From a virus (taxonomy: Duplodnaviria > Heunggongvirae > Uroviricota > Caudoviricetes): a stretch of DNA of 15,450 nucleotides. The notes beneath the pieces were generated by a model, which saw only the letters and a list, made by a program, of their open reading frames with translations, did no database searches and had not been told where the DNA came from. This document shows positions 1-14,758 of this stretch, in pieces (the stretch's first letter is position 1; every line of letters starts with the position of its first letter). A program made the translations under genes and the position numbers. The DNA is taken from positions 1 to 15,450 of the IMG/VR virus record IMGVR_UViG_2713897054_000018, one strand, 5' to 3'.

Positions 1-324
1 TAAACTCACAGCAAAGAAAGAAGCAATCCTAATATCCATAAATGCATCTGGACCACTGATTAAGGGAAATAAATAGGTTAAGAAATAATTTGTTATCTCC
101 TTATCTGCTGGAGAGGCGGTAGTTAATTTTTTACTGGTTACAGAATTATATTTAATTGCGTATTTAACAATCAAAACACACAGTAAAAGTATAATTGCAC
201 ACAATGATAAGTAAGCAATCATAAATTTATAGTGTTTTGATATACATGAAAGAAAAGCTAAGGTAAAAAATACCGGAGCAACTGAGCTGGCAGTAAGAAG
301 ATATTTGGCAAGCTTATTTAACAT
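1..324 (-). CDS. Hypothetical integral membrane protein, N-terminal 108 codons only; gene continues beyond the left edge of the window
   Basis: Hand translation of the minus strand from ATG at 324-322 gives MLNKLAKYLLTASSVAPVFFTLAFLSCISKHYKFMIAYLSLCAIILLLCVLIVKYAIKYNSVTSKKLTTASPADKEITNYFLTYLFPLISGPDAFMDIRIASFFAVSL with no stop before position 1. GGAGG lies 7 nt upstream of the ATG (+ strand 331-335 CCTCC). Two or three strongly hydrophobic segments suggest transmembrane helices. AT-rich. No family recognised. Confidence 0.5.
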   Translation of the reverse strand, partial: MLNKLAKYLLTASSVAPVFFTLAFLSCISKHYKFMIAYLSLCAIILLLCVLIVKYAIKYNSVTSKKLTTASPADKEITNYFLTYLFPLISGPDAFMDIRIASFFAVSL

Positions 325-495
325 ATTATCCTCCTTATCTGCCCTGGTGTCTGTATATAAAAACAGTATAACATCAATTTAAGCATCAAAGAAGATAATA
401 AAAATCAATTAAATCATAATGATGCCTGCGTTTTTAAAGTGTGGGCTTTTGGAGGCGGGTAATGTACGCGCGTATTCCCTGGAGATTCCATTTAA

Positions 496-513
496 AAGGC
501 TACGTATGTAGCC
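496..513 (-). terminator. Possible hairpin terminator or RNA structure just downstream of the 103-aa gene
   Basis: Perfect inverted repeat AGGCTAC-GTAT-GTAGCCT (7-bp stem, 4-nt loop) starting 9 nt after the stop of the 522..833 ORF. The trailing sequence on the minus strand (TTTAAAT) is only weakly U-rich. Confidence 0.25.
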
Positions 514-521
514 TCATGTAT

Positions 522-833
522 TTAAGAGTACTGGCCCCAATCTCTGGCAATAAACCAGTTTGGCGTCCAGCTAACAAACTCTTGCGGATGAAAGTTTTGA
601 GGGATTACAACTAGAGATACAATCGCTTCAGGTTGCAAACTGAGAACATGACTTTTTTTATCGCTTTCGTAATCCCAAAAATGGAATCTGTCACTTTTAT
701 CATGAGCTCTACGACTAGGACCGAAGTCCATAGGCGCAGTTAATCTTGTGATTGTCGCGTTATCTTCTTTTGAATAAAAAGTTAGCTGAATTTTTAAACA
801 ACTATGAATGGCATCAATGAATTTATCGCGCAT
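522..833 (-). CDS. Hypothetical 103-aa protein in the satellite variable (hotspot) region; function unknown
   Basis: ORF track 522..833 minus. Strong RBS: minus-strand sequence AAGGAG then 6 nt then ATG (+ strand 840-845 CTCCTT). AT-rich codon usage unlike the P4 core. No recognisable catalytic motif by eye. Confidence 0.55.
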   Translation of the reverse strand: MRDKFIDAIHSCLKIQLTFYSKEDNATITRLTAPMDFGPSRRAHDKSDRFHFWDYESDKKSHVLSLQPEAIVSLVVIPQNFHPQEFVSWTPNWFIARDWGQYS

Positions 834-959
834 ACGTTCTCCTTTGTAGTTACTAAATTAATATCCTCTATTGATAGATTATTGTGTGTGATCATTGCGG
901 CATTTAATAAAACGTAATGAGTTCATTGTATTTTATTTATGTTATCAGCCTTGCGCGCA

Positions 960-978
960 GTGCTTTCCCCGCCTCGCC
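960..978. other. cos: cos site: 19-nt cohesive-end sequence of the P2/P4 family
   Basis: Sequence GTGCTTTCCCCGCCTCGCC is the exact reverse complement of the P2/P4 cohesive end as I recall it (GGCGAGGCGGGGAAAGCAC). Position is as expected, about 165 bp beyond the end of psu. Confidence 0.6.
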
Positions 979-1080
979 CGCCCGCTTTGCGGGGCGGTTT
1001 TAATGCAGTTGCACTGACACGCTCAGACCGCGCCGGGAATGGCGCGGTTTGCAGAAAATGAGGCAGGGAAACGCATGCAA

Positions 1081-1112
1081 AGCCATGCACCTTATCGATG
1101 CATGGCTTTTTT
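1081..1112. terminator. Palindromic hairpin plus T-run between cos and psu; likely terminator of the late operon, possibly bidirectional
   Basis: AGCCATGCA-(8 nt)-TGCATGGCT followed by TTTTTT on the + strand. It lies 30 nt downstream of the psu stop on the minus strand. The stem is self-complementary so it can form on either transcript. Confidence 0.4.
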
Positions 1113-1142
1113 CAGTAAAAACGGGCGGATTTTCGGGGAGTT

Positions 1143-1715
1143 TTACACAGACTGATGTGATGCCAGTTGCGCACTTTTACGCGAAAAAATCATGTTCTGC
1201 GCAGGAGTGAATTTTTCACGGCTGTCATCCACCGAAGCAGCGTCAGGCCTGAATCCGATGGTCGTTAAAATGTCGCTATCCTGTGCGGAATAATTAATTT
1301 TTTCTCCCTTCGCAAGCCAGGACAGAAGGGCTTCACGCAGGGCATCTGTGGCCCGCTGTATGGCACAGTTTCGGGCAATGGCCGTCAGCTCACTGTAGCC
1401 CATCAGCTCCGGTGCCAGTGCCGCCGCCAGTGCTGTGCCGTGCTGCTGCATAAAATCATTCAGCCGGTCGCGGATGCTGATGTGCTGAACGGCTTCATGC
1501 GAACGAATATAACGACCGGCGGCCTGATTCACCTGCCATTTTCTGACTTCGATAATATTGCGTAATTCGTCCAGGCGACTGACGTTTCTGCCTTCTCCTG
1601 ACAGAAGCCGCAGGTATTCCTGTTCGGCCGCTGCCAGCTCATTTTTGCGTTGCAGCCATGCTGCTTTGTTATTCTGACAGGTGTCAAAGGCCTGCTGTAA
1701 GGCTGTGCTTTCCAT
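1143..1715 (-). CDS. psu: Psu, polarity suppression protein (Rho antagonist and capsid decoration protein) of P4-type satellites
   Basis: 190-aa ORF, the same length as P4 Psu. The sequence matches my recollection of P4 Psu (MESTALQQAFDTCQNNKAAWLQRKNEL...). It is last in the sid-delta-psu order and next to cos. Confidence 0.9.
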   Translation of the reverse strand: MESTALQQAFDTCQNNKAAWLQRKNELAAAEQEYLRLLSGEGRNVSRLDELRNIIEVRKWQVNQAAGRYIRSHEAVQHISIRDRLNDFMQQHGTALAAALAPELMGYSELTAIARNCAIQRATDALREALLSWLAKGEKINYSAQDSDILTTIGFRPDAASVDDSREKFTPAQNMIFSRKSAQLASHQSV

Positions 1716-1788
1716 CGTTATCTCTTTCTCATCATGCTGAAGAATAAAAATACGGTGTGCGGCGACGGCCGGTGTTAACCGGCAGCCC

Positions 1789-2289
1789 TCATTCCAGACG
1801 CAGCGAATATGATTGTGTTTTTAACCGTACTGGCGGCAGTTCCTGTTTTTCATGCAGGCGTTCTGCCAGTTCGTCCGGCGTGACCGGGCGGACAATGAAG
1901 CGGTTGATGGTCTGAAGCGTTTTAAACACCAGACCACAGCCCGGATCCGTGCACACATAAAAACGCTCGGTGACTTCCTGAGACAGACGCCGCGATGTTC
2001 TTGACAGTGCAAGGCCTTTACATCTCCGACAACAATATCCGGTAACAAGCATTCTTTTCGGGCGTTTCATACTGCCGGAGGCTGACGTCAGTGAATCGCG
2101 GTATCTCTGTTTGCCTGAAATGTATTCCATTCCTGAATCTTTACAGTCAGAGAAAAAGCTTTCACTCGCTTCAAATGTCGCAGAGCAATAAATATTCCGG
2201 CACTGTGCAATCATTATCTTGGTGCCATCGTCCATGAAATGTGCGCGGCGGGTGTGAGCAACATGTCCACACGACGGGCAGTAAATCAT
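1789..2289 (-). CDS. delta: Delta, late-gene transcriptional activator (tandem Ogr-like zinc-finger domains)
   Basis: 166-aa ORF, the same length as P4 Delta. Two Cys4 zinc-finger units are present (CPSCGH...C..C and CRRCKG...C..C). Its start overlaps the sid stop (ATGA at 2286-2289). Confidence 0.9.
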   Translation of the reverse strand: MIYCPSCGHVAHTRRAHFMDDGTKIMIAQCRNIYCSATFEASESFFSDCKDSGMEYISGKQRYRDSLTSASGSMKRPKRMLVTGYCCRRCKGLALSRTSRRLSQEVTERFYVCTDPGCGLVFKTLQTINRFIVRPVTPDELAERLHEKQELPPVRLKTQSYSLRLE

Positions 2290-3020
2290 GACAGCAGTCC
2301 TCTGGCCTTAAGCTCTGCACCCTGCTGGTCTATTTTGTCCTGCCACACCTTGCGCTGTGCCGGTGTGCCTGCCACCTCATAATCCATGTGCGGGAGTGTT
2401 GCCGCTGACAGTCCGGTCAGCCGGAGAACCGGCTCGCCGGTGAGGCTGATTTGCATCTGTTTTATTTTCTGTTCCAGCGATGATTTCACCTGCTGCATGA
2501 CAGCCTTTTCCGCCGCGACGTAGCCCTGATGGCCGGTGGTGTTGGCGAGCGGATTTTCCTGTACCAGGATGCTCAGATGCATTGCCCGGACAAGCGCCTC
2601 ACAGGTTTCATTCAGGGCGTGTTCCAGCTCATGCTCTGCATACAGACTCAGCAGGTGATGATGTGCCTTCCGGTAGGCGGTGGCCGTGCTGTCACACGCC
2701 CCTTTCAGGCGTTCACATTCAAAATTCAGCACCACGGCCAGATTGTCATATTCCTGTACCAGCTCCCGGCGTGCCACGCGCTCAATGTGGCGCTGTTTCA
2801 GCTCGTCGCTCAGGACACCACCGGCTGCACGAAAGGCCGTGCGCCAGTCGTCAGCGTCGTTTCCGTCGGCCTGCGCCAGCGCATTTTTTTCCTGCTCTGC
2901 CCGTTCAATGGCCGTGATGGTCTCATCCATCAGGCGGGCGTTCTCAAGATGAGCGGCTCTGGCCTTTTCCAGTTGTGCCAGCGCGGGTTGCAGATATTCA
3001 GGGATGGTGTTGTCAGACAT
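2286..3020 (-). CDS. sid: Sid, capsid size-determination (external scaffold) protein
   Basis: The ORF track gives 250 aa from a GTG at 3038. The ATG at 3020 has GAGGAG 7 nt upstream and gives 244 aa, the P4 Sid length. It is the first gene of the late operon and is translationally coupled to delta. Confidence 0.85.
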   Translation of the reverse strand: MSDNTIPEYLQPALAQLEKARAAHLENARLMDETITAIERAEQEKNALAQADGNDADDWRTAFRAAGGVLSDELKQRHIERVARRELVQEYDNLAVVLNFECERLKGACDSTATAYRKAHHHLLSLYAEHELEHALNETCEALVRAMHLSILVQENPLANTTGHQGYVAAEKAVMQQVKSSLEQKIKQMQISLTGEPVLRLTGLSAATLPHMDYEVAGTPAQRKVWQDKIDQQGAELKARGLLS

Positions 3021-3092
3021 TTTCCGGCTCCTCGTCACTTCAGGTTAAGAAAATTGTGACGTACACCGGACAACAACACGACGCATTGCAGA

Positions 3093-3110
3093 TGTGCCAG
3101 CCCTGACACA
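3093..3110 (-). promoter_or_regulatory. Candidate Delta/Ogr binding site (TGT-N12-ACA) of the sid late promoter
   Basis: TGT GCCAGCCCTGAC ACA dyad centred about 80 bp upstream of the sid ATG, which is the right distance for a site centred near -55 with a short 5' UTR. A second TGT-N12-ACA at 3055-3072 is too close to sid to serve the same promoter. Confidence 0.45.
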
Positions 3111-3189
3111 GGAGACTCATCCTCAGACCGGCAAGCCAGGAAAAGGTCGCAGGAAAAACCGGCTTACTGTTTGTTTTTTTATATTTTAC

Positions 3190-3293
3190 TGTTCACCTCT
3201 GTTCACCATAAGAAAAAAGATAAGTAATACAGTAAGTTAAATGGTGAACAATCGCAGTAATGACTGTTCACCGTCTGTTCACCACTGTTCACC
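3190..3293. repeat. ori-like cluster of type I iterons (TGTTCACC), the expected binding sites for the alpha protein
   Basis: Exact TGTTCACC at 3190-3197, 3200-3207, 3265-3272, 3276-3283 and 3286-3293, plus an inverted copy GGTGAACA at 3243-3250. Lies between the divergent sid promoter and the leftward-operon promoters. Confidence 0.7.
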
Positions 3294-3452
3294 CGCTCAT
3301 GGACTTTTTGTGCTGTTTACTACTGTTTGTTTTTATTAATTCGCCGGGAATGAATAAGAAGAAACGATTTGTATTTCACTATAAAAATTACGAATTGCTT
3401 TAAGTGGCTTTAAATGACTTTAAGTGGGAATGAACAAAAAACACACAGTCAT

Positions 3453-3470
3453 TGTAAGGCGGCCGGAACA
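3453..3470 (+). promoter_or_regulatory. Candidate Delta/Ogr binding site (TGT-N12-ACA) of the late promoter for the leftward operon (P4 PLL equivalent)
   Basis: TGT AAGGCGGCCGGA ACA. A site centred near -55 predicts a start near 3516, about 400 bp upstream of the candidate early promoter, which matches the P4 PLL-PLE spacing. The vis ATG follows at 3573. Confidence 0.4.
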
Positions 3471-3572
3471 AATCCCCCCTGTTGCGTCTGCCAAAAAGAT
3501 TCACAAAATAAAGCGCTACCCGAAGCCGGACGGACTTATCCGGTGCTGTATGGACATTAACGAGGTAGCCCG

Positions 3573-3839
3573 ATGCAAGCTGTTTTTTCTTCCCCGTCTC
3601 CCTCCCCTGTGACGCCACTGATGCCGCTGCCGGACATCACGCAGGAGCGTTTTTTACGTCTGCCGGAAGTGATGCACCTGTGCGGCCTGTCACGCTCGAC
3701 CATCTATGAACTCATCCGTAAGGGGGAATTTCCGCCGCAGGTGAGTCTTGGCGGTAAAAATGTGGCCTGGCTGCACTCTGAAGTCACCGCATGGATGGCC
3801 GGGCGCATTGCCGGACGCAAACGGGGGTACGACGCATGA
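3573..3839 (+). CDS. vis: Vis-like small DNA-binding protein (AlpA family excision/regulatory protein)
   Basis: 88-aa ORF with GAGG 7 nt upstream of the ATG. The core [22 protein letters not shown]....LG...V.W...EV..W is an AlpA-type helix-turn-helix signature. Position matches P4 vis, between the late and early leftward promoters. Confidence 0.65.
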
Positions 3840-3883
3840 TGATGCCTGTTCTGCAAAAACTCCCTTTTTCTGGCTTGCCTTTT

Positions 3884-3913
3884 TCCGGCATTTGCGGATA
3901 TAGTTTTTCCGCT
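3884..3913 (+). promoter_or_regulatory. Candidate sigma-70 early promoter of the leftward operon (P4 PLE equivalent)
   Basis: TTGCCT (3884-3889), 18-nt spacer, TATAGT (3908-3913). The seqA-like element begins about 15 bp downstream. Confidence 0.35.
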
Positions 3914-4104
3914 GTCGCAAAATCGGCAGCCGGGCGTGAGAACCCGAGTATGTTATCGGCGACATATGACGCGCCATGCGTCTTTTTTTGTGTCGCAATC
4001 AACGCCACAGAGCACCAGATTATGGTGTGGCGTGTGGTTTGCCGTGCAGGTATGATCCTGTTCGCAATCGCATGTTATGCCTCTGAGTCAATGGTAGCTC
4101 AGGC

Positions 4105-4155
4105 GGGGCAGCCTCCGGGCTGGCCGGTTTCCGATAACGCCGGTATTCTCACCCC
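4105..4155 (+). ncRNA. cI: Candidate CI-like immunity RNA core (seqB), flanked by complementary seqA-like (about 3929-3963) and seqC-like (about 4176-4223) targets; boundaries approximate
   Basis: CCGATAACGCCGGTATTCTCAC (about 4128-4150) is complementary to the direct repeats GCGTGAGAAC...GTTATCGG found at 3929-3963 and 4176-4220. The seqC copy overlaps the RBS of the next ORF (GTTATCGGAGG). This is the arrangement of P4 transcription-termination immunity. Confidence 0.35.
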
Positions 4156-4228
4156 CGTCTGGGCTATCGCCATCGAGCGTGAGAACTCCGGCGATAGCGT
4201 CATTTACGCTGTTATCGGAGGTTGCCTT

Positions 4229-4426
4229 ATGGCTACGACCCTTACCCCTTCACACCCTGAATTTGTCTTTGTGTTTGCGGCTGTCCGTCGCGCAGACCGT
4301 CATCCCCGTATCTGCATGCTTCGCACCGTCGCCGGTGATGAACGCAGTGCCCGCCGTTCCCTTGTCCGTGACTATGTGCTCTCCCTTGCTGCCCGTCTGC
4401 CAGTGGTGGAGGTGTCCCGTGCGTAA
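4229..4426 (+). CDS. Small early protein (65 aa), first translated ORF after the immunity leader; kil/eta-like by position
   Basis: ATG at 4229 with GGAGG 7 nt upstream. It is in frame with the longer 3791..4426 ORF, whose upstream part covers the promoter and immunity RNA region and is probably not coding. Its stop overlaps the next start (GTGCGTAA). Confidence 0.45.
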
Positions 4427-4706
4427 TAAAAAAGCCCCTCAGACCGTCTCAGCGCGTCATGACGCCCGTGAACACCTCAGCATTGAGGCTTATCATAAGC
4501 TCAACCGTGCCAGCGCCGTATCCCAGTTTGTTGGGGGTGATTTGATTCACCGTGAACTCTCCGGCCTGCATCAGCTCTACATTCCGCATATTTTCAGCTA
4601 CCTGAATGAAGATATTGATTTTGTGCTGAATGAGCTGAAAGCCAAAGGCCTGTGCCGCGATTTTCTCGCCCAGCAGAAAGACCGGGGAGACAGGACGCAT
4701 GTTTGA
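4419..4706 (+). CDS. Small early protein (95 aa); epsilon-like by position (possible helper-prophage derepressor)
   Basis: GTG start at 4419 with GGAGG 6 nt upstream. It is the gene immediately upstream of the 151-codon ORF, the same relative position as P4 epsilon. The ORF track lists a longer in-frame version from 4179 that lacks an RBS. Confidence 0.45.
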
Positions 4707-5154
4707 TTTTCCCCAGCCCGGTGAGATTTACCGTTCTGCCGGTTTTCCCGATGTGGCCGTGGTCGGCATTCTGGAAGACGGTATTCCGTGGGAAATGCCG
4801 TACCGCTGCCCGGAAATTGTCTGGAACCCGTACCGCCGTAAATTCAGTATCCTTGTGCGTATCCTCGATGACGGGCGCACCACAGACATCCCGCTGGGGC
4901 GTTTTCTGCGGGAATTTACCTGTGACCGTCCTGACCTGTTCAGACGCAGCCCCGTAAACCGGCATGCGGTACTGAAAGAAATGGCCGGAGACCCGGAATT
5001 ACAGAAATGGCGGGAGAAATATCTGGATATTTACCCGCAGGAGCCTGTTCCGGTCAGCCGGGCGGCACCGGTGGCGCGGGAATGGCGGGAAATTCCCCGC
5101 ACGGAGCCTGACCCGGAAATCACCCCGGATAACAGTTACCGCAATTATCTGTAA
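4699..5154 (+). CDS. P4 orf151-like early protein, function unknown
   Basis: Exactly 151 codons, matching the P4 orf151 length and position in the leftward operon. Its start overlaps the stop of the preceding gene. Confidence 0.6.
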   Translation: MFDFPQPGEIYRSAGFPDVAVVGILEDGIPWEMPYRCPEIVWNPYRRKFSILVRILDDGRTTDIPLGRFLREFTCDRPDLFRRSPVNRHAVLKEMAGDPELQKWREKYLDIYPQEPVPVSRAAPVAREWREIPRTEPDPEITPDNSYRNYL

Positions 5155-5289
5155 TTAAAAAACGACACCCGAAAAATTAAATGTGCGTATTCGCGCAGGG
5201 ATACGCACGTCTTCAGGAGGCGCAGATATGCCTTATCAGTTAATGCAACCGGCACGGAATGCAGTCATCTGTCACAGGGAGGAAAGCAA

Positions 5290-5610
5290 ATGAAAACACC
5301 CTTACCGCCCGTCTTACGCGCTGCCCTTTACCGTCGCGCTGTCGCCTGTGCCTGGCTGACCGTGTGCGAACGTCAGCACCGCTACCCGCATCTCACCCTT
5401 GAGTCACTGGAGGCGGCCATCGCCGCTGAGCTGGAAGGCTTTTATCTGCGCCAGCACGGTGAGGAAAAAGGGCGTCAGATAGCCTGTGCCCTGCTGGAAG
5501 ATTTAATGGAATCCGGCCCCCTGAAGGCCGCGCCGTCGCTGTCCTTTCTCGGGCTGGTTGTGATGGATGAACTCTGTGCCCGTCACATAAAAGCGCCGGT
5601 ACTGCACTGA
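5290..5610 (+). CDS. Hypothetical 106-aa early protein directly upstream of alpha
   Basis: ORF track 5290..5610 with GGAGG 7 nt upstream. Its stop lies 15 nt before the alpha start. Codon usage matches the P4 core. Confidence 0.55.
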
Positions 5611-5624
5611 AGGAGAACAACACC

Positions 5625-6062
5625 ATGAAAATGAACGTAACCGCCACCGTCAGCCATGCGCTCGGCCACTGGCCGCGTATTCTCCCGGCGCTGGGGATTC
5701 AGGTGCTGAAAAACCGTCATCAGCCCTGTCCGGTCTGTGGCGGGAGTGACCGCTTCCGTTTTGATGACAGGGAGGGGCGCGGCACCTGGTACTGCAATCA
5801 GTGTGGTGCCGGTGACGGCCTGAAACTGGTTGAAAAGGTGTTTGGTGTCTCCCCGTCCGACGCGGCCACAAAGGTGGCTGCCGTGACCGGCAGCCTGCCC
5901 CCGGCTGACCCGGCAGTGACGGCCGCCGCCGGTGCTGAAACAGAAGCCGCCCGGAAGAACGCCGCCGCACTGGCACAAACCCTGATGGCGAAAACCCGTC
6001 CCGGAACCGGTAACGCCTACCTGACCCGCAAGGCTTTCCCGGCCGGGAATGCCGGATGCTGA
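5625..6062 (+). CDS. alpha: Alpha primase-helicase, N-terminal fragment (zinc-binding primase domain), ended by an apparent frameshift
   Basis: 145-aa ORF with AGGAG 9 nt upstream. Contains a CxxC...CxxC zinc motif (CPVCGGSDRFRFDDREGRGTWYCNQCG). It continues in another frame as the 633-aa ORF, and 145 + 633 is about the 777 aa of P4 alpha. Confidence 0.75.
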   Translation: MKMNVTATVSHALGHWPRILPALGIQVLKNRHQPCPVCGGSDRFRFDDREGRGTWYCNQCGAGDGLKLVEKVFGVSPSDAATKVAAVTGSLPPADPAVTAAAGAETEAARKNAAALAQTLMAKTRPGTGNAYLTRKAFPAGNAGC

Positions 6063-7957
6063 CCGGCACACACAGAGCCGGTGGCGTGAGCTGGCGTGCC
6101 GGTGACCTTGTGGTGCCACTGTATGACGACAGCGGCGAACTGGTTAACCTTCAGTTAATCAGTGCTGACGGCCGTAAGCGCACCCTGAAAGGCGGGCAGG
6201 TCAGGGGCACCTGTCACATCCTTGAAGGACAGAATCAGGCCGGAAAACGTCTGTGGATAGCGGAGGGATACGCGACCGCACTTACCGTGCATCACCTGAC
6301 CGGTGAAACGGTGATGGTGGCGCTTTCTTCCGTGAACCTCCTTTCTCTGGCCAGCCTTGCCCGGCAGAAGCATCCGGCCTGTCAGATTGTCCTTGCCGCA
6401 GACCGTGACCTCAGCGGTGACGGCCAGAAAAAAGCCGCCGCAGCCGCAGATGCGTGTGAAGGTGTTGTTGCCCTGCCGCCGGTCTTCGGTGACTGGAATG
6501 ATGCCTTCACGCAGTACGGCGGGGAAGCCACCCGTAAGGCCATTTATGATGCCATCCGGCCACCGGCTGAAAGCCCGTTCGACACCATGAGCGAAGCGGA
6601 GTTTTCCGCCATGAGTACCAGCGAAAAGGCCATGCGTATCTATGAGCATTACGGCGAGGCGCTCGCGGTTGATGCCAACGGCCAGCTTCTGTCCCGTTAT
6701 GAAAATGGTGTCTGGAAGGTGCTGCCACCACAGGACTTTGCCCGGGATGTGGCCGGGCTGTTTCAGCGGCTGCGCGCGCCGTTCTCCTCCGGGAAGGTGG
6801 CCTCCGTGGTGGACACCCTGAAGCTGATTATTCCGCAGCAGGAAGCCCCCTCCCGCCGCCTGATTGGCTTTCGTAACGGCGTGCTCGACACGCAGAACGG
6901 CACGTTCCACCCGCACAGTCCGTCACACTGGATGCGCACCCTGTGCGATGTGGATTTCACCCCGCCGGTGGAAGGGGAAACGCTGGAAACCCACGCCCCC
7001 GCGTTCTGGCGCTGGCTTGACCGTGCCGCCGGTGGCCGTGCGGAAAAACGCGACGTGATTCTGGCCGCACTGTTTATGGTGCTGGCAAACCGCTACGACT
7101 GGCAGCTCTTTCTGGAGGTGACCGGTCCCGGCGGCAGCGGCAAAAGTATCATGGCCGAAATAGCCACCCTGCTGGCCGGGGAGGATAACGCCACGTCGGC
7201 CACCATTGAGACGCTGGAATCCCCGCGTGAACGTGCCGCGTTAACTGGCTTCTCACTGATACGCCTGCCGGACCAGGAAAAATGGAGCGGCGACGGAGCC
7301 GGACTCAAGGCCATCACCGGCGGCGATGCAGTGTCCGTTGACCCGAAATACCGGGATGCGTACTCCACGCACATCCCGGCGGTGATTCTGGCCGTGAACA
7401 ATAACCCGATGCGCTTCACCGACCGCAGCGGCGGCGTGTCACGCCGGCGGGTGATTATTCACTTCCCGGAACAGATAGCCCCGCAGGAGCGCGACCCGCA
7501 GCTTAAGGACAAAATCACCCGCGAGCTGGCGGTCATCGTGCGTCACCTGATGCAGAAGTTCAGCGACCCGATGCTCGCCCGGTCACTGCTTCAGTCCCAG
7601 CAGAACTCAGACGAGGCGCTGAACATCAAACGGGATGCCGACCCGACGTTTGATTTTATCGGCTATCTGGAAACCCTGCCGCAGACCAGCGGCATGTATA
7701 TGGGGAACGCCAGTATCATCCCGCGTAATTACCGTAAATACCTCTATCACGCCTATCTGGCCTACATGGAGGCAAACGGCTACCGGAATGTACTCAGTCT
7801 GAAAATGTTCGGGCTGGGGCTGCCGGTGATGCTGAAGGAATACGGACTGAATTACGAGAAGCGCCATACCAAACAGGGGATACAGACCAACCTGACGCTG
7901 AAAGAGGAAAGCTACGGCGACTGGCTGCCAAAATGTGACGACCCTGCAACAGCCTGA
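6056..7957 (+). CDS. alpha: Alpha primase-helicase, C-terminal part (TOPRIM-like primase core plus helicase with Walker A GPGGSGKS)
   Basis: 633-aa ORF. Its frame is open back to 6014 and overlaps the N-terminal fragment. Walker A motif VTGPGGSGKS is present. It is followed directly by the crr iteron repeats. Confidence 0.8.
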   Translation: MLTGTHRAGGVSWRAGDLVVPLYDDSGELVNLQLISADGRKRTLKGGQVRGTCHILEGQNQAGKRLWIAEGYATALTVHHLTGETVMVALSSVNLLSLASLARQKHPACQIVLAADRDLSGDGQKKAAAAADACEGVVALPPVFGDWNDAFTQYGGEATRKAIYDAIRPPAESPFDTMSEAEFSAMSTSEKAMRIYEHYGEALAVDANGQLLSRYENGVWKVLPPQDFARDVAGLFQRLRAPFSSGKVASVVDTLKLIIPQQEAPSRRLIGFRNGVLDTQNGTFHPHSPSHWMRTLCDVDFTPPVEGETLETHAPAFWRWLDRAAGGRAEKRDVILAALFMVLANRYDWQLFLEVTGPGGSGKSIMAEIATLLAGEDNATSATIETLESPRERAALTGFSLIRLPDQEKWSGDGAGLKAITGGDAVSVDPKYRDAYSTHIPAVILAVNNNPMRFTDRSGGVSRRRVIIHFPEQIAPQERDPQLKDKITRELAVIVRHLMQKFSDPMLARSLLQSQQNSDEALNIKRDADPTFDFIGYLETLPQTSGMYMGNASIIPRNYRKYLYHAYLAYMEANGYRNVLSLKMFGLGLPVMLKEYGLNYEKRHTKQGIQTNLTLKEESYGDWLPKCDDPATA

Positions 7958-8008
7958 CCCACCTGACCGGCATCTGCCGGTCTTTTTTTTATCCCGACAT
8001 CCCCCGAA

Positions 8009-8275
8009 GGTGAACAATCCACTGTTCACCCTTCACCGTATATTCACCCGTTATCACACTGAAATTAAAAGAGAAAAACGAAAGGTGAACAGTGTAATCA
8101 AATCAAAAAAACTTTTTTTCTCCCTGTGTGATTTCAGTACGGGGGATTAATCACCGGTATGAGTCACACCGGCAGAATGCCGGAGGTGAAGAATCGAATG
8201 TTCACCCTTCACCCATTATTCACCACCTATCACTCTGAAATAAAAGGAGAAAAAAGAAAGGTGAACAGTGTGAAC
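8009..8275. repeat. crr-like cis replication region: two direct repeats of about 85-120 bp, each carrying TGTTCACC iterons
   Basis: Repeat unit 1 at about 8020-8105 and unit 2 at about 8194-8280 (CCACTGTTCACCCTTCACCG...GAAAGGTGAACAGTG in both). Exact octamers at 8009-8016 and 8083-8090 (both inverted), 8023-8030, 8199-8206 and 8259-8266 (inverted), plus degenerate copies. About 4.8 kb from the ori-like cluster. Confidence 0.7.
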
Positions 8276-8319
8276 AGTTCTTTCGAAAAAAAATTTTTTA
8301 TGTGGATAAAAGATGCACT

Positions 8320-8346
8320 GGTTTGGATCCGAGCTACGGATCCAAA
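8320..8346. repeat. Perfect 11-bp inverted repeat with 5-nt loop (GTTTGGATCCG agcta CGGATCCAAAC)
   Basis: Read directly from the sequence. It sits in the AT-rich stretch between crr and the att-like core. It could be a protein binding site or an RNA hairpin. Confidence 0.4.
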
Positions 8347-8492
8347 CTTACTGATTAAAAATGATTTAACTTTCCGATTTATTGATGGGCTGAAAATAGA
8401 TTGGTCAGAAAAACAGTGGGGGCACAAAAGGGGGCATATTTCATTGTTGTATTTTATTATTTGTTTTTTATCATTAACTTATTTTGATGTTT

Positions 8493-8513
8493 GAGTCCGG
8501 CCTTCGCACCACA
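8493..8513 (+). other. att-like core: fragment resembling the 3' end of a tRNA-Leu (leuX-like) gene; probable right boundary of the satellite
   Basis: GAGTCCGGCCTTCGCACCA resembles the T-arm and acceptor 3' end of E. coli leuX as I recall it (GAGTCCGGCCTTCGGCACCA), differing by one base. There is no intact T-stem or anticodon arm upstream, so it is a fragment. A strong terminator follows, and composition changes on both sides. Confidence 0.45.
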
Positions 8514-8526
8514 CCGTATGCAAATC

Positions 8527-8551
8527 GAGCCGCTCAAGAGCGGCTTTTTTT
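8527..8551 (+). terminator. Rho-independent terminator (probably the original tRNA terminator)
   Basis: AGCCGCTC-AA-GAGCGGCT perfect hairpin followed by a run of 7 T. Confidence 0.6.
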
Positions 8552-8735
8552 GTGTCTGAAATCCGTTAGTTACCTATCTTTCTCGCTATTTTAACTCTCT
8601 CAGGGCTAACCAATTCCAACCCATCGCAAACGAAAAATGTTGGTACAGGCGTTGGTATTATCGGTTCGATATTAATTTGTATTAGCTCAGTCCTGATCTG
8701 ACAGCTATCTGCCAGATCAGGTTCGGATTAATACA

Positions 8736-11700
8736 TTATATCTGCCCGCCTACACCTTTAAACTTCTCAATAAACGCGACGATCTTCTGGAAAACCGTCT
8801 GTTTTTTCGTCTTATATTGCGGATTTAACGGACTGAGTTTTGGCAATGTCTCGTTTAATTCCGTGCCATTTTCGGTGGCGTATTCGCGTTTTAAAGACGT
8901 GCGAATATAGCGTTTCGCCGCCTCTTCATTGAGATTTTCTTCTTTGATCAAGGCTTCTGCTTCACGTTGCTGTTCGCGTTGAGCAAAGGTAAAAAACGCG
9001 TCAATGATGCTGGCTTTATCCGGCAAATCATCCAGGTTCGTTTGCTGAATAAAATCGACCACCAGACCTTCTTTGGCACGGTTCCCAAGGCTTGAACGAA
9101 TTAAGCGTTTGACCTCTTCGGTCATTTCGCCCTTACCTTTGTTTTGTCTGTTGTGTTCGAAAATCAGTCCAAGGATATAATCCAGGTTTATTTCCTGAGA
9201 CTTCAGCAAATCGATTTCAAAAACCACGTCATCCCAGTCAGTAGTTAACTTTTCTTTTTTGCCAGCCTCTTTCTCGCGGCGCTGCCAGTCACGAATATCG
9301 TTATAGGCAGAACGATAATCCTGAATCTTGCGTTCAGCAGGGAGACGAATCGTTTGTAATTCAGCGAACTTTTCATCATCCACATAATGTTCTTCTTTGA
9401 ATTTTTCTACCGCAACAGGATCGCTAAGATCGATTTGTTGCAGGGCTTTCAGCGTGGCAAATTCATCATAGTTTTGCAGGATGTTCTCGGCACGCAGGTA
9501 TTCACCAAACAGTTTAACGAAGTCTTTCTTCTCTTTTTCACTTTCAATACTGGCAGGGTCAGGGAACCGTTGTTCCAGTTCTGAAACTACTGCCATAAAG
9601 CCGCGTTTAGCTTCACCAGTGGCAGCATCAGTAAAGCCTTCCATATACTCTGCATAACTCTTTTCTAACACTACATTTTTGGTATTTTTATCACCAAACA
9701 GCGTTATGGCATCAATGGTTGAGCGTTCCAGATCCCGGAAAGTGACGATGTTACCGAAGGTTTTAGTGGCGTTATAAATGCGGTTGGTGCGGGAGAATGC
9801 CTGCATCAGGCCGTGAAAACGCAAGTTTTTATCGACGAATAGCGTGTTCAATGTTGGAGCGTCGAAGCCGGTTAAAAACATCCCAACGACAATTAACAGA
9901 TCGATATCCTGATTTTTAACCCGTTGGGCTAAATCACGATAGTAGTTCTGAAAACCGTTACTGTCGGTGCTGAAGTTAGTTTTAAAATAGCTGTTATACT
10001 CACGAATTGCAGCGTCAAGAAACTCTTTAGCACTGCTGTCCATTGCGCTGGTATCAAAAGTTTCATCGGAAATTTCACCAATGGCATTTTGTTCTTCATT
10101 GGCGGCAAAGGAGAAGATTGTCGCAACACGCAGCGGTTTATAGGTAGCCGATTTATTAGCTGCTTCCTCTTGTAACCGTTTAAACGTCGCGTAATAGGCT
10201 TTCGCGGCATCCACGCTACTCACTGCCAGCATGGCATTAAAGCCTTTGGAACCTGGGAAAGTACGGTGGGTCTTCTGGCGGAAGTTATTCAGAATATATT
10301 GCGTAATTTCCTGTATACGCATGGGATGAAGAAACGCCTGCTGATTTTCAGCCGCACTCAGTTTTTTCTCGTCGGTTTCTGTCTCTAAAGACTTAAACTG
10401 TGGCCGCACATCGTTGTAGTCCACCTTGAATTTAAGCACTTTTTCATCTCGAATCGCATCGGTAATAACATATGAATGCAATTCACGACCAAATACACTG
10501 GCGGTCGTTTCTGAACCTAAAGCGTTTTCCGGGAAAATAGGGGTACCGGTAAAACCAAACTGATAATAGCGTTTGAATTTCTTCTTCAGGTTTTTCTGCG
10601 CTTCTCCAAACTGGCTGCGGTGGCATTCATCAAATATAAACACCACTTGCTGATTGTATACAGGCAGGTCGCTTTCTGCTTTCATCAGGTTATTAAGTTT
10701 CTGAATAGTGGTGACGATAATTTTGTTATCGTCCTTATCCAGATTTCGTTTAAGACCTGCTGTATTTTCCGAGCCGTTAACACTATCTGGCGAAAAACGC
10801 TGATATTCCTTCATGGTCTGGTAATCGAGATCTTTCCTGTCGACCACAAAGAAAACTTTATCAATAAAGTCCAGTTCTGTTGCCAGACGTGCGGCTTTAA
10901 AGCTGGTCAGTGTTTTACCAGAACCGGTTGTGTGCCAGATAAAGCCACCGCTTTCGGGGGTAGACCAGTTTTTCGCTTTATAGGAGCTGTTGATTTTCCA
11001 TAAGATACGCTCAGTGGCGGCAATCTGGTACGGTCGCATCACTAGTAGCGTTTGGCTAATATCGAACACGCTGTAGTTCACTAAGACATTAAGCAGAGTA
11101 TGTTTCTGGAAAAAGGTAGCGGTAAAGTCTTTGAGGTCTTTAATCAGCGTGTTGTCTGATTTCGCCCAGTTCATGGTGAAGTCAAAACTGTTTTTATCGC
11201 GCTTTGTGGTGTTGGCAAAGTAACGGGTATCGGTGCCGTTAGAAATGACAAACAGTTGCAGATACTTAAACAGGGAATTTTCGCTGTTAAAACTCTCTTT
11301 ACTGTAACGATGTATCTGGTTGAAAGCCTCACGAATCGCCACGCCGCGCTTTTTCAGTTCGATTTGTACCAGTGGTAAGCCATTAACCAGGATCGTGACG
11401 TCATAACGGTTAGCATGAGAACCCGCCTGTTCAAACTGCTGGATAATCTGCACCTTATTGCGCATGAGATTCTTTTTATCTATCAAATAGATGTTCTCAA
11501 GACGCTCGTCATCAAAAATAAAGTCGCAAATATAGTCGATATGGATTTTACGGGTCTTATCCAGAATGCCATCACTCGGGTTGTCCAGATATTGCTCCGT
11601 GAAACGCCGCCACTCGCTGTCATTAAATACCACACCATTGAGGCTCTGAAGCTGTTCCCGAACATTGGACAGCATCGCCAACTGTGATTTTACCGAAATA

Positions 11701-11852
11701 AATTCATAGCCCTGATTCCGCAGGTCCTGAATCAGTTCCCGTTCCAGGTCCGATTCGCTCTGGTAGCTGTCGCCTGTTTGCTCAGCTTTGATGTACTTAT
11801 CAAGGACGATAAAGTTATTGGATTCAGCAATGGTGTGTGTCTGATGAGTCAT
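8736..11852 (-). CDS. hsdR: Type I restriction enzyme R subunit (HsdR), type IC-like
   Basis: 1038-aa ORF, the same length as EcoR124I HsdR. N-terminal PD-(D/E)xK-like nuclease motif (D...IELKK), SF2 helicase motif I (HTTGSGKT) and motif II (DECHRSQ). Order hsdM-hsdS-hsdR with a 121-bp gap before hsdR is typical of the IC family. Confidence 0.9.
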
Positions 11853-11973
11853 AGCGCATCCTTTGTGCCGCCTGGCAAGGGCCGGAAGGGCGTTAAGAGT
11901 GACTTCCGGCGCGTAAAAAATAGTCTATATACAGACCGGGTGTTAAGGTGGCCCGGTCGGTAGCAATGGTCAA

Positions 11974-13205
11974 TTAATTACTGACAGTTTCAGGTTTCGG
12001 GAAACTGAACAGTAAATCACGATAGTACTCGTATTGTTTCTGGCGCAACTCGATTTCACGCGGAAGGCCTTCGGTGATGGAGTTTGTCAGGGTGTCGAAT
12101 TTATCGAGAATAGATACTATACGTTCCTGTATCTCCATAGAAGGGACTGGAATTAATATCTTAGATAAATTATCAGCATTTACACGTCGAACTTTTGCGC
12201 CAGTAATATACTGTCTTTTTTGATTTTGGAATTGTTCTGTTTGAAAAAAATATGAGACATACTTAGGGTTTAAATTATGTTTGTAAATACAGGCATCACT
12301 GCTTACTGCTATATCTTCACTGCCTAACCATGCAACAGCTTTACATACATCCTCATCATTCTCACTAGTAGTTGCGATAATCAAATCTCCCTTTTGAGCT
12401 TCTTGCATTTTTTTGCAAGTGCGGTTGAAATATATGTTTTTGTTTTTTCTGTATATGTTCCGTAATACGTATAGATTTGACCATAGTGTATGCACCCTAC
12501 ACCTGCATCTATAAAGTCTTTTTTCTGAAAAGTACCACCCCGGATAAACTCGCCAATATCTTTTTGCCCCATAGGTAAATGTGGAACATCTTCGGTATTA
12601 AAACTAAACAACTGGTCGCGATAGTAGTTGTACTGTTTTTTACGCATGTTAAGCTCAGCGGTAAGCTCAGCGGTAAGTGCAGTAAACTTATCCAGAATCC
12701 GAACAATTTCAGACTGGATGGCAAGGGATTTCTCCGGATTATCCGGGCAGGGGATGGGGACTAACCTTTTTTCAATTGTAGTTTTGCTGATGTGCATCAT
12801 AGTAGAACCAGTGCTATGTGCATCTTTAAGTGCTTTAGTATCCCATTGTAACAAGTAATATAGAAACTGTTTACAAATAAGATTCGAATCTGGAACCACT
12901 TTCCATATGTGATAATGGTAAATAGATTTACCCCCATGCCAAATTCTTGGACCAAATGATGCGGACCAAGCATATAAAAGGTCACCGTTATCACAATACT
13001 TGTCTTGATCTAATTCTAAATCTGAGTAATACCAATTTTGGTTAGTAAAAAAATTACCGACTCTTAATACTGGATATTTGCCTTTGGAAAGCAGTTCTTC
13101 TTGCTTATATGCTCTCCCGTTTATTAAACGACAAACTTTAGCCAATGGCAACCACTCAACTTCAACCCCATCCAGCAATTTTTCCAGATAACTTAACTCG
13201 CTCAT
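11974..13205 (-). pseudogene. hsdS: Type I specificity subunit (HsdS), type IC family with two TAEL repeats; reading frame broken into 274- and 173-codon ORFs
   Basis: The N-terminal ORF (12381..13205) begins [21 protein letters not shown] and carries the central conserved region with LTAELTAEL. The C-terminal ORF (11974..12495) ends in the conserved ...LPREIELRQKQYEYYRDLLFSFPKPETVSN. The two overlap in different frames at a homopolymer tract (+ strand T7 at 12409-12415). The start overlaps the hsdM stop. Confidence 0.75.
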
Positions 13206-14758
13206 TTCTGCACCTCGTAGCCTTCAATTTCAGCCACAATCGCATCAATATCTTTGCGCAATTGGTCGATTTTGCTGACCGTGGTTTTCAGCTCTGCATT
13301 CAACTCAGCGATATCGATAATTTCGCGAGTATCTTTCGCTTCCACATAGCTGCTCACCGACAGGTTATAGTCATTCGCGACAACGGTCTCAAACGCGACA
13401 GATTTCGCCAGATGAGCAACATCTTCCTTGCTGGCAAATACCTGCATAATCTGTTCGATATGGGCATCGGTCAGAATGTTGTTGTTAGTCTCTTTTTTGA
13501 ACAGCTCGCTGGCATCAATAAACTGAACGTTGGTATCCGTTTTATGTTTAGACAACACCAGAATATTGACGGCAATGGTGGTGCCAAAGAACAGGTTCGG
13601 TGCGAGTGAAATCACGGTTTCGACATAGTTATTGTCAACCAGATACTGACGGATTTTCTGCTCCGCGCCGCCACGGTAAAAAATGCCCGGGAAGCAGACA
13701 ATCGCAGCACGACCTTTGGCAGAAAGATAGTTCAGCGCATGTAATACAAACGCAAAGTCAGCTTTGGATTTGGGGGCCAGAACGCCAGCCGGGGCAAAAC
13801 GTTCATCGTTAATCAGCGTCGGGTCATCGCTGCCAATCCATTTCACCGAATACGGCGGGTTAGAAACGATGGCATCAAACGGTTTTTCATCTCTGAAGTG
13901 CGGCTCAGTCAGCGTATTGCCCAGCTTGATATCAAACTTGTCGTAGTTGATGTTGTGCAAAAACATGTTCATACGCGCCAGGTTATAGGTCGTATGGTTG
14001 ATTTCCTGACCAAAAAAACCTTCTTCGATGATATGGTCATCAAACTGTTTTTTAGCCTGCAACAACAGCGAACCGGAACCTGCTGCCGGGTCGTAGATTT
14101 TGTTAACGTGGGTCTGGCCGTGCATTGCCAGTTGTGCAATCAGCTTAGAGACGTGCTGCGGTGTAAAGAACTCGCCGCCTGACTTACCAGCATTCGCCGC
14201 ATAGTTAGAAATCAGGAACTCATAGGCATCGCCGAACAGGTCAATCTGATGTTCGTTAAAGTCGCCAAGCTTTAACCCTTCAACCCCTTTCAGAACCGCA
14301 GCCAGGCGGGCATTTTTATCCTTAACGGTGTTACCCAGGCGGTTACTGGTGGTATCGAAATCAGCAAACAAACCTTTGATGTCAGCTTCTGAAGGGTAAC
14401 CGTAAGCAGAACTTTCGATAGCAACGAAGATACTGTTTAAATCTGCATTCAGTCTGTCATTGGTATTTGCTTTCGCAGCTACGTTGCAGAAAAGCTGACT
14501 TGGGTAGATGAAGTAGCCTTTAGTTTTGATGGCATCGTCTTTAATGTCATCAGTAATTACGCTGTCATCCAGTTTCGCATAACAGATACTGTCATCACCG
14601 GCTTCAATATAGCTGGAAAAATTTTCGCTGATAAAACGGTAGAAAAGCGCGCCCAGAACGTATTGCTTAAAGTCCCATCCATCGACCGAACCTCTGACAT
14701 CGTTAGCAATTTGCCAGATTTGGCGATGAAGCTCCGCGCGCTGCTGAAGGCTGGTCAT
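13202..14758 (-). CDS. hsdM: Type I N6-adenine DNA methyltransferase subunit (HsdM)
   Basis: 518-aa ORF with an AAGGA RBS. AdoMet-binding motif [10 protein letters not shown] and catalytic motif NPPY (SNPPYSVKW). It is translationally coupled to hsdS. Confidence 0.9.

Follow-up and report, generated by a model that had tools for sequence, protein, structure and literature searches.

The attR of a P4-like satellite prophage at leuX in Escherichia coli and a recurrent one-base deletion in the displaced tRNA gene end

Positions 8416-8551 of the window, by which we mean the whole 15,450-nt stretch of viral DNA analysed here, almost certainly represent the attR of an 11,093-bp P4-like satellite prophage inserted in leuX, the tRNA-Leu(CAA) gene of E. 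coli. Under the established scheme of P4/lambda-type site-specific recombination, the tyrosine integrase of the satellite would have carried out an exchange between attP and attB, which is the 3' end of leuX. The copy of the tRNA 3' end that came with the satellite would now complete leuX at attL, beside int and 2.6 kb left of the window, and the original leuX 3' end, together with its downstream DNA and terminator, would have been pushed 11.1 kb away and fused to the attP arm on the alpha/crr side. All of the defining features of a P4-type attR that can be examined in sequence are present, namely the core, the left arm with its repeats, the right flank, the attL and the gene set. The displaced fragment lacks one G of the acceptor stem, and this absence (deltaG) is a real and systematic 1-nt deletion that recurs among genomes and not a sequencing error. 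The features of the window that concern the junction are as follows.

979-8511, minus strand: P4-like satellite body in the window, comprising psu, delta, sid, immunity RNAs, vis, epsilon, alpha and crr (megablast to P4, RefSeq annotation of the reference locus L001, P4 annotation, Rfam)
3573-3839, plus strand: vis (P4 orf88), predicted AlpA-family excisionase and regulator (Pfam Phage_AlpA, E = 7e-21; P4 ORF88 is annotated "excisionase and transcriptional regulator")
8004-8276, plus strand: crr direct repeats, the P4 cis-required replication region, just inside the right end of the satellite (repeat family D1; P4 crr is annotated at 4291-4590)
8416-8439, plus strand: a tandem pair of 12-bp attP arm-type repeats, in which GGGGGCA stands at 8418 and 8430 (the P4 "attP arm sequence repeat" at 4151-4162 and 4163-4174 maps here)
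8493-8511, plus strand: att core of attR, the displaced original leuX 3' end (3' part of the T-loop, T-stem, acceptor 3' strand, discriminator and CCA; 19/20 nt, four-way att alignment, core annotated in X05947 and NC_001609)
8512-8526, plus strand: 15-nt spacer, native DNA directly 3' of leuX (contiguous with intact leuX in unoccupied genomes)
8527-8551, plus strand: predicted intrinsic terminator of leuX (8-bp stem, 4-nt loop, T7), parted from its gene by the insertion (terminator scan, fold, native context in the satellite-free locus L024)
8552-8735, plus strand: remaining resident flank beside leuX, as far as the end of the convergent hsdR gene at its stop codon, chromosomal or older-island DNA (identical in the empty-site locus L024)

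Positions 8493-8511 read GAGTCCGGCCTTCGCACCA, a 19-mer that occurs once in the window and that found no match in 200 dinucleotide-preserving shuffles even when two mismatches were permitted. The last 20 nt of leuX read GAGTCCGGCCTTCGGCACCA (9301-9320 in the locus L001 of E. coli STEC2017-197, NZ_CP075663.1), and the 20-bp P4 attP core annotated at X05947 156-175 and NC_001609 4078-4097 is identical to this end. Aligned with either, the 19-mer is colinear over 19/20 nt and has exactly one G gone, which is one of the GG in the 3' strand of the acceptor stem. This strand is CTTCGGC in leuX and is followed by the discriminator A, with the deleted G lying 2-3 nt ahead of the discriminator. A sequence-only reading of the window had noticed the likeness to the leuX 3' end at 8493 and had suspected that one acceptor-stem base was missing; both observations proved sound, and the missing base is a genuine deletion shared by 420 genomes. 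The same reading had seen no tRNA body upstream of the fragment, in agreement with ARAGORN, which calls no tRNA gene anywhere in the window.

To the right of the core, positions 8527-8546 form a hairpin, GAGCCGCT-CAAG-AGCGGCTT, that ends in a run of seven T residues (8545-8551). The predicted fold has an energy of -18.4 kcal/mol (z = -4.1 against shuffles), and 8527-8551 is the sole plus-strand terminator-like site returned by a terminator scan within 8000-8900. The hairpin and T7 had been recognized from the letters with a spacer of 14 bp, which is in fact 15 nt. In the satellite-free locus L024 the same hairpin stands 16 nt past the CCA end of an intact leuX, a native context that marks it as leuX's own terminator, orphaned at attR. 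On this comparison the hairpin and T-run are best described as the native intrinsic terminator of leuX, moved 11.1 kb by the insertion, and not as a feature of the satellite. The proposal that the tRNA fragment and terminator together mark the satellite boundary was correct as to the boundary, which falls at 8511, and is amended here as to the terminator.

The DNA on the other side of the core is that of the satellite. Among phage records, positions 979-8511 align by megablast to P4 (X51522/NC_001609) in one piece at 97.6% identity, corresponding to the P4 minus strand from the cos end at coordinate 11624 to coordinate 4078, where the attP core finishes. The homology does not extend past 8511, with which the core of the window ends, and therefore no satellite sequence lies beyond that position; a continuation beyond 8513, which would have spoken against the proposed boundary, was looked for and P4 homology had already ended. 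The junction resembles the P4 attP (X05947 / NC_001609 4078-4097) in the position of the core, in its target gene and in the gene order from cos to alpha/crr. The left arm is 98.9% identical to that of P4 (X05947 1-175) over 174 nt, both arm-type repeats included, and the Int proteins are 93% identical. It differs in that the core of the window is without one G and in that the cos-adjacent cargo is not gop/beta/cII. Between the att sites are found psu, delta, sid, the CI/C4 RNA, vis, epsilon, alpha, crr and cos. By analogy with P4, the arm-type repeats at 8416-8439 are presumed to bind Int, through its N-terminal arm-binding domain, in the left arm of attP and attR, and Vis is expected to act as the directionality factor for this att site. 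The arm motif GGGGGCACAAAAGGGGGCA is retained approximately 55-75 bp left of the core in most of the divergent left-arm families (L016, L019, L021, L022 and L023), with one substitution in L020 and a single copy in L018.

Several other parts of the satellite body were characterized in passing. Rfam places a C4/CI immunity RNA at 4087-4174 (76 bits), an a1b1 target and isrK (3911-3988) within 3898-4174 on the plus strand, and these matches indicate that the RNA-based immunity region of the satellite is intact. The crr repeats of family D1 lie at 19905-20001 and 20081-20177 in L001 and are 84% identical. The cos-adjacent cargo (window 1-978 and leftward; L001 10807-12733) lies past the cos end at 979, where P4 homology ceases; the P4 gop/beta/cII genes are replaced there by two hypothetical genes and, immediately left of the window, a KwaB-like (Kiwa) gene. 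The hypothetical gene at 522-833 on the minus strand has no Pfam match. This cos-side position is known as a hotspot of variable cargo in P4-like satellites. An ORF of 111 aa at 8159-8494 on the plus strand overlaps crr and the arm repeats, and its stop codon runs two bases into the att core. In several genomes it is labelled "integrase" by RefSeq (WP_077628762.1), a label that was rejected: the ORF has no Pfam domain and corresponds to P4p05, a "hypothetical protein" predicted by GeneMark, and the annotation looks like an error.

The left end of the satellite was recovered from L001, which is identical to the window save for two substitutions and three 1-bp indels. In L001 the tRNA-Leu(CAA) gene leuX lies at 9236-9320, carries the full 20-bp core and ends 2,581 nt left of base 1 of the window; it is followed by the int-side P4 attP arm and then by a P4-type integrase that is 93% identical to P4 Int. 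The expectation that an intact tRNA and int would lie left of the window is borne out by this arrangement, as is that of a direct repeat, since the two copies of the core are 11,093 bp apart. In a four-way alignment of the empty attB, the attL, the attR of the window and the P4 attP, the arms are swapped reciprocally around the core. The earlier suggestion of an att site formed by integration into a tRNA 3' end accordingly agrees with the core, the arms, the attL and the empty site alike.

The individual differences between the window and L001 are single-base losses at 6034 (GGG>GG), 12400 (CC>C) and 14910 (GG>G) and substitutions at 5408 and 15435. Owing to the loss at 6034 the alpha primase-helicase gene is broken into two ORFs (5625-6062 and 6056-7957), and the loss at 12400 does the same to hsdS (ORFs 11974-12495 and 12381-13205). 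The 1-bp losses reflect either faulty assembly of the source genome or genuine frameshifts that inactivate genes.

For the unoccupied site, leuX was joined in silico to window 8512-8700 and the construct was searched in 5,426 complete E. coli genomes. At least 15 of these genomes carry it unbroken at 100% identity, and 2,351/5,426 cover at least 80% of it. One satellite-free locus is L024 (E. coli 2013C-3033), from a near-isogenic strain in which the order is ahr-leuX-flank-hsdR-hsdS-hsdM-IS3-mcrB, otherwise as in L001. L024 matches the right flank at 5,999/6,000 positions over 6 kb, and in L001 as in L024 hsdR lies 225 nt from the end of the core. The comparison with empty sites in related genomes that had been proposed from the letters is thereby answered in favour of an insertion. 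These loci also bear on the possibility that the 19-mer is not the end of a satellite, and is instead a scar of the attL type left by the hsdRMS/mcrBC island, a tRNA-like fragment that arose by chance or the product of a sequencing error. The DNA to the right is indeed a variable, leuX-associated defence region, and the window has three other 1-bp deletions relative to L001. Against the first of these origins, satellite-free strains have hsdRMS abutting an intact leuX without a second copy of the core, and the extra core therefore arrives with the satellite. Chance is countered by the 0/200 shuffles that match the 19-mer, and error by the occurrence of deltaG in 420 independently assembled complete genomes, L001 included. 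We consider all three origins exceedingly improbable. Neither host DNA left of 8493 without the satellite nor an absence of leuX and int at the other end was found.

From these comparisons all DNA right of 8511, including the EcoR124-type HsdR, is assigned to the resident locus and excluded from the satellite. The stretch at 8552-8671 that follows the terminator (containing CTGAAATCC and TTCTCGCTATTTTAACTCTCTCAGGGCTAACC) is recognisably conserved beside the deltaG core in an Erwinia sp. (L018), and it shares homology with the DNA ahead of intB-type integrase genes in tandem arrays at leuX (flank 2 of L003/L005). Rather than plain intergenic DNA, it may represent the int-proximal arm of a former leuX island that has lost its integrase. 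Farther right, positions 8736-14758 on the minus strand hold an EcoR124-type (type IC) hsdR-hsdS-hsdM operon that abuts the leuX flank and is 94-95% identical to copies on Escherichia phage records of 89-95 kb (vB_EcoM-673R5, phi456). The region continues in L001 to approximately 33,000 with IS3, mcrBC and a phosphorothioate-dependent restriction enzyme after hsdRMS, and this defence island occupies the place held in K-12 by KpLE2, between leuX and nanS/nanC/fimB.

The distribution of deltaG was surveyed in the 5,426 complete E. coli genomes by megablast, with every 28-nt seed forced to span the critical position. The deltaG core is present in 420 E. coli genomes, of which 358 cover at least 80% of a query made of the satellite arm, the deltaG core and this flank; the corresponding query with the intact core returned 0 E. 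coli genomes. DUST masking was considered as the reason for the empty result and is unlikely from the composition of the query, and a similar 30-nt query gave matches. The intact 20-bp core next to a P4 arm was found in just 4 E. coli genomes, all of them tandem arrays, as a second island with its own integrase gene directly follows the satellite. In the three such loci that were fetched (L003, L004 and L005, with the junction at about 15,006 in each) the satellite lies directly upstream of this second island, the integrase gene of which is intact in 2/3 and a pseudogene in L005. A second copy of the leuX 3' end is present at 22,320 in L004.

Pattern scans that permitted either form of the core returned deltaG in 12/12 viral contigs (IMG/VR), 3/3 species-representative genomes, which belong to Erwinia and Pantoea, and 3/3 metagenome contigs. 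Altogether deltaG spans at least six left-arm families, which are mutually 45-74% identical, and more than ten right flanks, some of them non-homologous. Both GG and deltaG are seen with a KpLE2-type flank (L003/L005 versus L007/L008/L013), and a comparison of GG and deltaG elements over 1.5 kb left of the core did not separate them, the P4-type arms being 98-99% identical. The deletion is also seen in another setting. A tRNA-type T-arm is joined to the deltaG core in 12 E. coli genomes; in one of these, L026, the displaced fragment of a different island has a genuine tRNA T-arm left of deltaG, and in another, L025 (NZ_CP074701.1, strain 702/18), a full-length leuX at 5946-6030 is without the acceptor-stem G, is 84 nt long and is still called tRNA-Leu by ARAGORN. 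The G-less gene of L025 looks like a scar from the loss of a satellite.

A constant deletion could in principle be a single old mutation in the dead att site of an immobilised prophage that was then inherited vertically. The displaced fragment has no function to keep, and the locus is common to E. coli lineages through descent and recombination, as such neutral decay would suppose. The same 1-nt deletion nevertheless occurs with non-homologous right flanks, in Erwinia and Pantoea, and next to left arms just 45-57% identical; no other variant of the core was found in the same context (358 to 0), and the satellite ORFs are intact in L001. Decay of this kind is in our estimation very improbable.

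The deletion instead matches the recurrent "damage" of displaced tRNA fragments that K. P. Williams and colleagues describe for satellite-type islands. The lesion has reportedly been noted since 2003, in a paper by Williams (J Bacteriol 185:1059) on the displaced tRNA or tmRNA fragment in attR. It was treated further by Hudson et al. 2014 (PMC4048246), by Hudson et al. 2015 (PMC4383910) and in 2023 (PMC10111431). Damage is defined as a small deletion, situated about 3 bp ahead of the discriminator, that is present in the attR fragment and absent from the regenerated gene (PMC4383910, PMC4048246). The attR of the window falls within this definition both in the position of its deletion and in the state of the other end, as it lacks one G of CTTCGGC-A while the attL of L001 is intact. 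The two share a small deletion in the 3' strand of the acceptor stem, 2-3 nt upstream of the discriminator, and an island of the satellite type, and a P4-like island at tRNA-Leu of K. pneumoniae, Kpn11L, is explicitly listed with damage in the papers of the Williams group (PMC4048246, PMC4383910, PMC10111431). In a mobilome paper on the Klebsiella strain, the P4-like island yielded almost no junction reads. They differ in that the deletion is always exactly 1 nt here, whereas variable lengths are reported for PICIs. It was also proposed that damage may be restricted to PICIs (PMC10111431), in contrast to our counts, in which it is near-universal for the P4-like satellites of E. coli too.

Two self-consistent models could account for deltaG, and they differ in the side of the gap on which the crossover would occur. 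The reading we prefer, which we infer to have a slightly better than even chance of being correct, is that deltaG belongs to the chromosome-derived part of attR and that the crossover lies left of the gap. The exchange would then take place at the junction of T-stem and acceptor stem, the satellite would supply the GG end that completes leuX, and excision would leave leuX without an acceptor-stem base. The GG of the P4 attP and the existence of a G-less full-length leuX in L025 are consistent with this order of events, as is the displaced fragment in L026 with its tRNA T-arm and deltaG. Published accounts likewise interpret the damage as sitting in the displaced fragment (PMC10111431, PMC4383910). 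Tyrosine recombination is conservative, and a deletion on the chromosome side must therefore arise after integration; since the same deletion is found in more than ten independent flanks, a directed process or strong selection would be needed. The weakness of a chromosome-side origin is accordingly that an identical deletion must recur after every integration. The attR of laboratory P4 lysogens is said to have an intact 20-bp core in the work of Pierson and Kahn, and if so damage is not an immediate product of integration. That deltaG is the scar of an abortive Int cleavage at this position is offered as speculation only.

Alternatively, the deletion would be carried by the satellite itself. 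The natural attP core would be 19 bp, the exchange would occur right of the gap within GCACCA, attL would keep the GG of the host and attR would take the deltaG of the element, such that excision would restore an intact leuX. The rare GG elements (P4 and the 4 genomes above) and the G-less leuX would then represent occasional crossovers left of the gap. Inheritance with the element is the most parsimonious account of a deletion that travels with the satellite left arm over more than ten unrelated flanks and at least six arm families, and it explains the many flank contexts without recurrent mutation. GG and deltaG share the KpLE2-type flank, and both the GG attR (4 genomes) and the tRNA-type arm with deltaG (12 genomes) are rare. 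L001 retains intact satellite genes, which suggests that these elements are still mobile.

Such an exchange region would, on the other side, be only 6 bp (GCACCA), unusually short and asymmetric, with the right core-binding site landing in non-conserved flanks and the 14-bp identity on the left one base out of register with the host site. P4, the sole sequenced free form, has GG and would have to be a rare allele, and the deltaG of L026 is right of the genuine tRNA T-arm of a different island. The published placement of damage in the displaced fragment also runs counter to an element-borne deletion (PMC10111431, PMC4383910). A free attP of a natural deltaG element was sought in IMG/VR, species-representative genomes, metagenome contigs and plasmids, and none was found. 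Junctions of arm, core and "CACCATT" that were candidates for a free attP were rejected as tandem arrays or remnants in which the arm-repeat motif differs between the two sides or no int follows. We regard an element-borne deltaG as rather unlikely, though still to be taken seriously, and the remaining probability beyond these two accounts falls to mixtures of them or to neither.

Returning to the preferred chromosome-side origin, deltaG would on a bolder view be a programmed or selected lesion at the position of Int cleavage, serving as an addiction device or a partial excision lock. The addiction reading arises because a cell losing the satellite would inherit a leuX without an acceptor-stem base. 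We put this forward tentatively, as a possibility that is more doubtful than probable. The idea that damage may debilitate the tRNA gene on excision, in the manner of an addiction module, was proposed in 2023 (PMC10111431).

The junction itself belongs to a class that was defined experimentally for P4 in the 1980s, and this one is of a kind already known and ordinary. Integration of P4 into E. coli leuX was reportedly described by Pierson and Kahn in 1987. Other islands at leuX, KpLE2/intB in K-12 and PAI II in strain 536, carry integrases of the P4 family and direct repeats that stem from the 3' end of leuX, and the deletion of PAI II reportedly truncates leuX. The satellite shares its tRNA target with them and forms tandem arrays with such islands in L003-L005. 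They differ in being large islands without the P4 genes for replication and helper exploitation, and the neighbouring hsdRMS/mcrBC region in the present locus differs from them in having no integrase beside leuX.

The analysis fixes the right boundary of the satellite to base 8511 and places the terminator and all rightward DNA, including the type I R-M system, in the resident locus, which matters for the annotation of the window. For delimiting the element the result is correct and useful, and it is otherwise ordinary. In wider terms, the same 1-nt deletion is nearly always present in the displaced end of leuX beside P4-like satellites across the 5,426 complete E. coli genomes, and this near-constancy supports the idea that "damage" is systematic rather than a matter of decay. 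The phenomenon has been published before, as has the addiction hypothesis, and the wider point made here is only quantitative. If the suggestion of a programmed or selected lesion were true, P4-like satellites would provide a tractable system for a phenomenon so far noted only bioinformatically.
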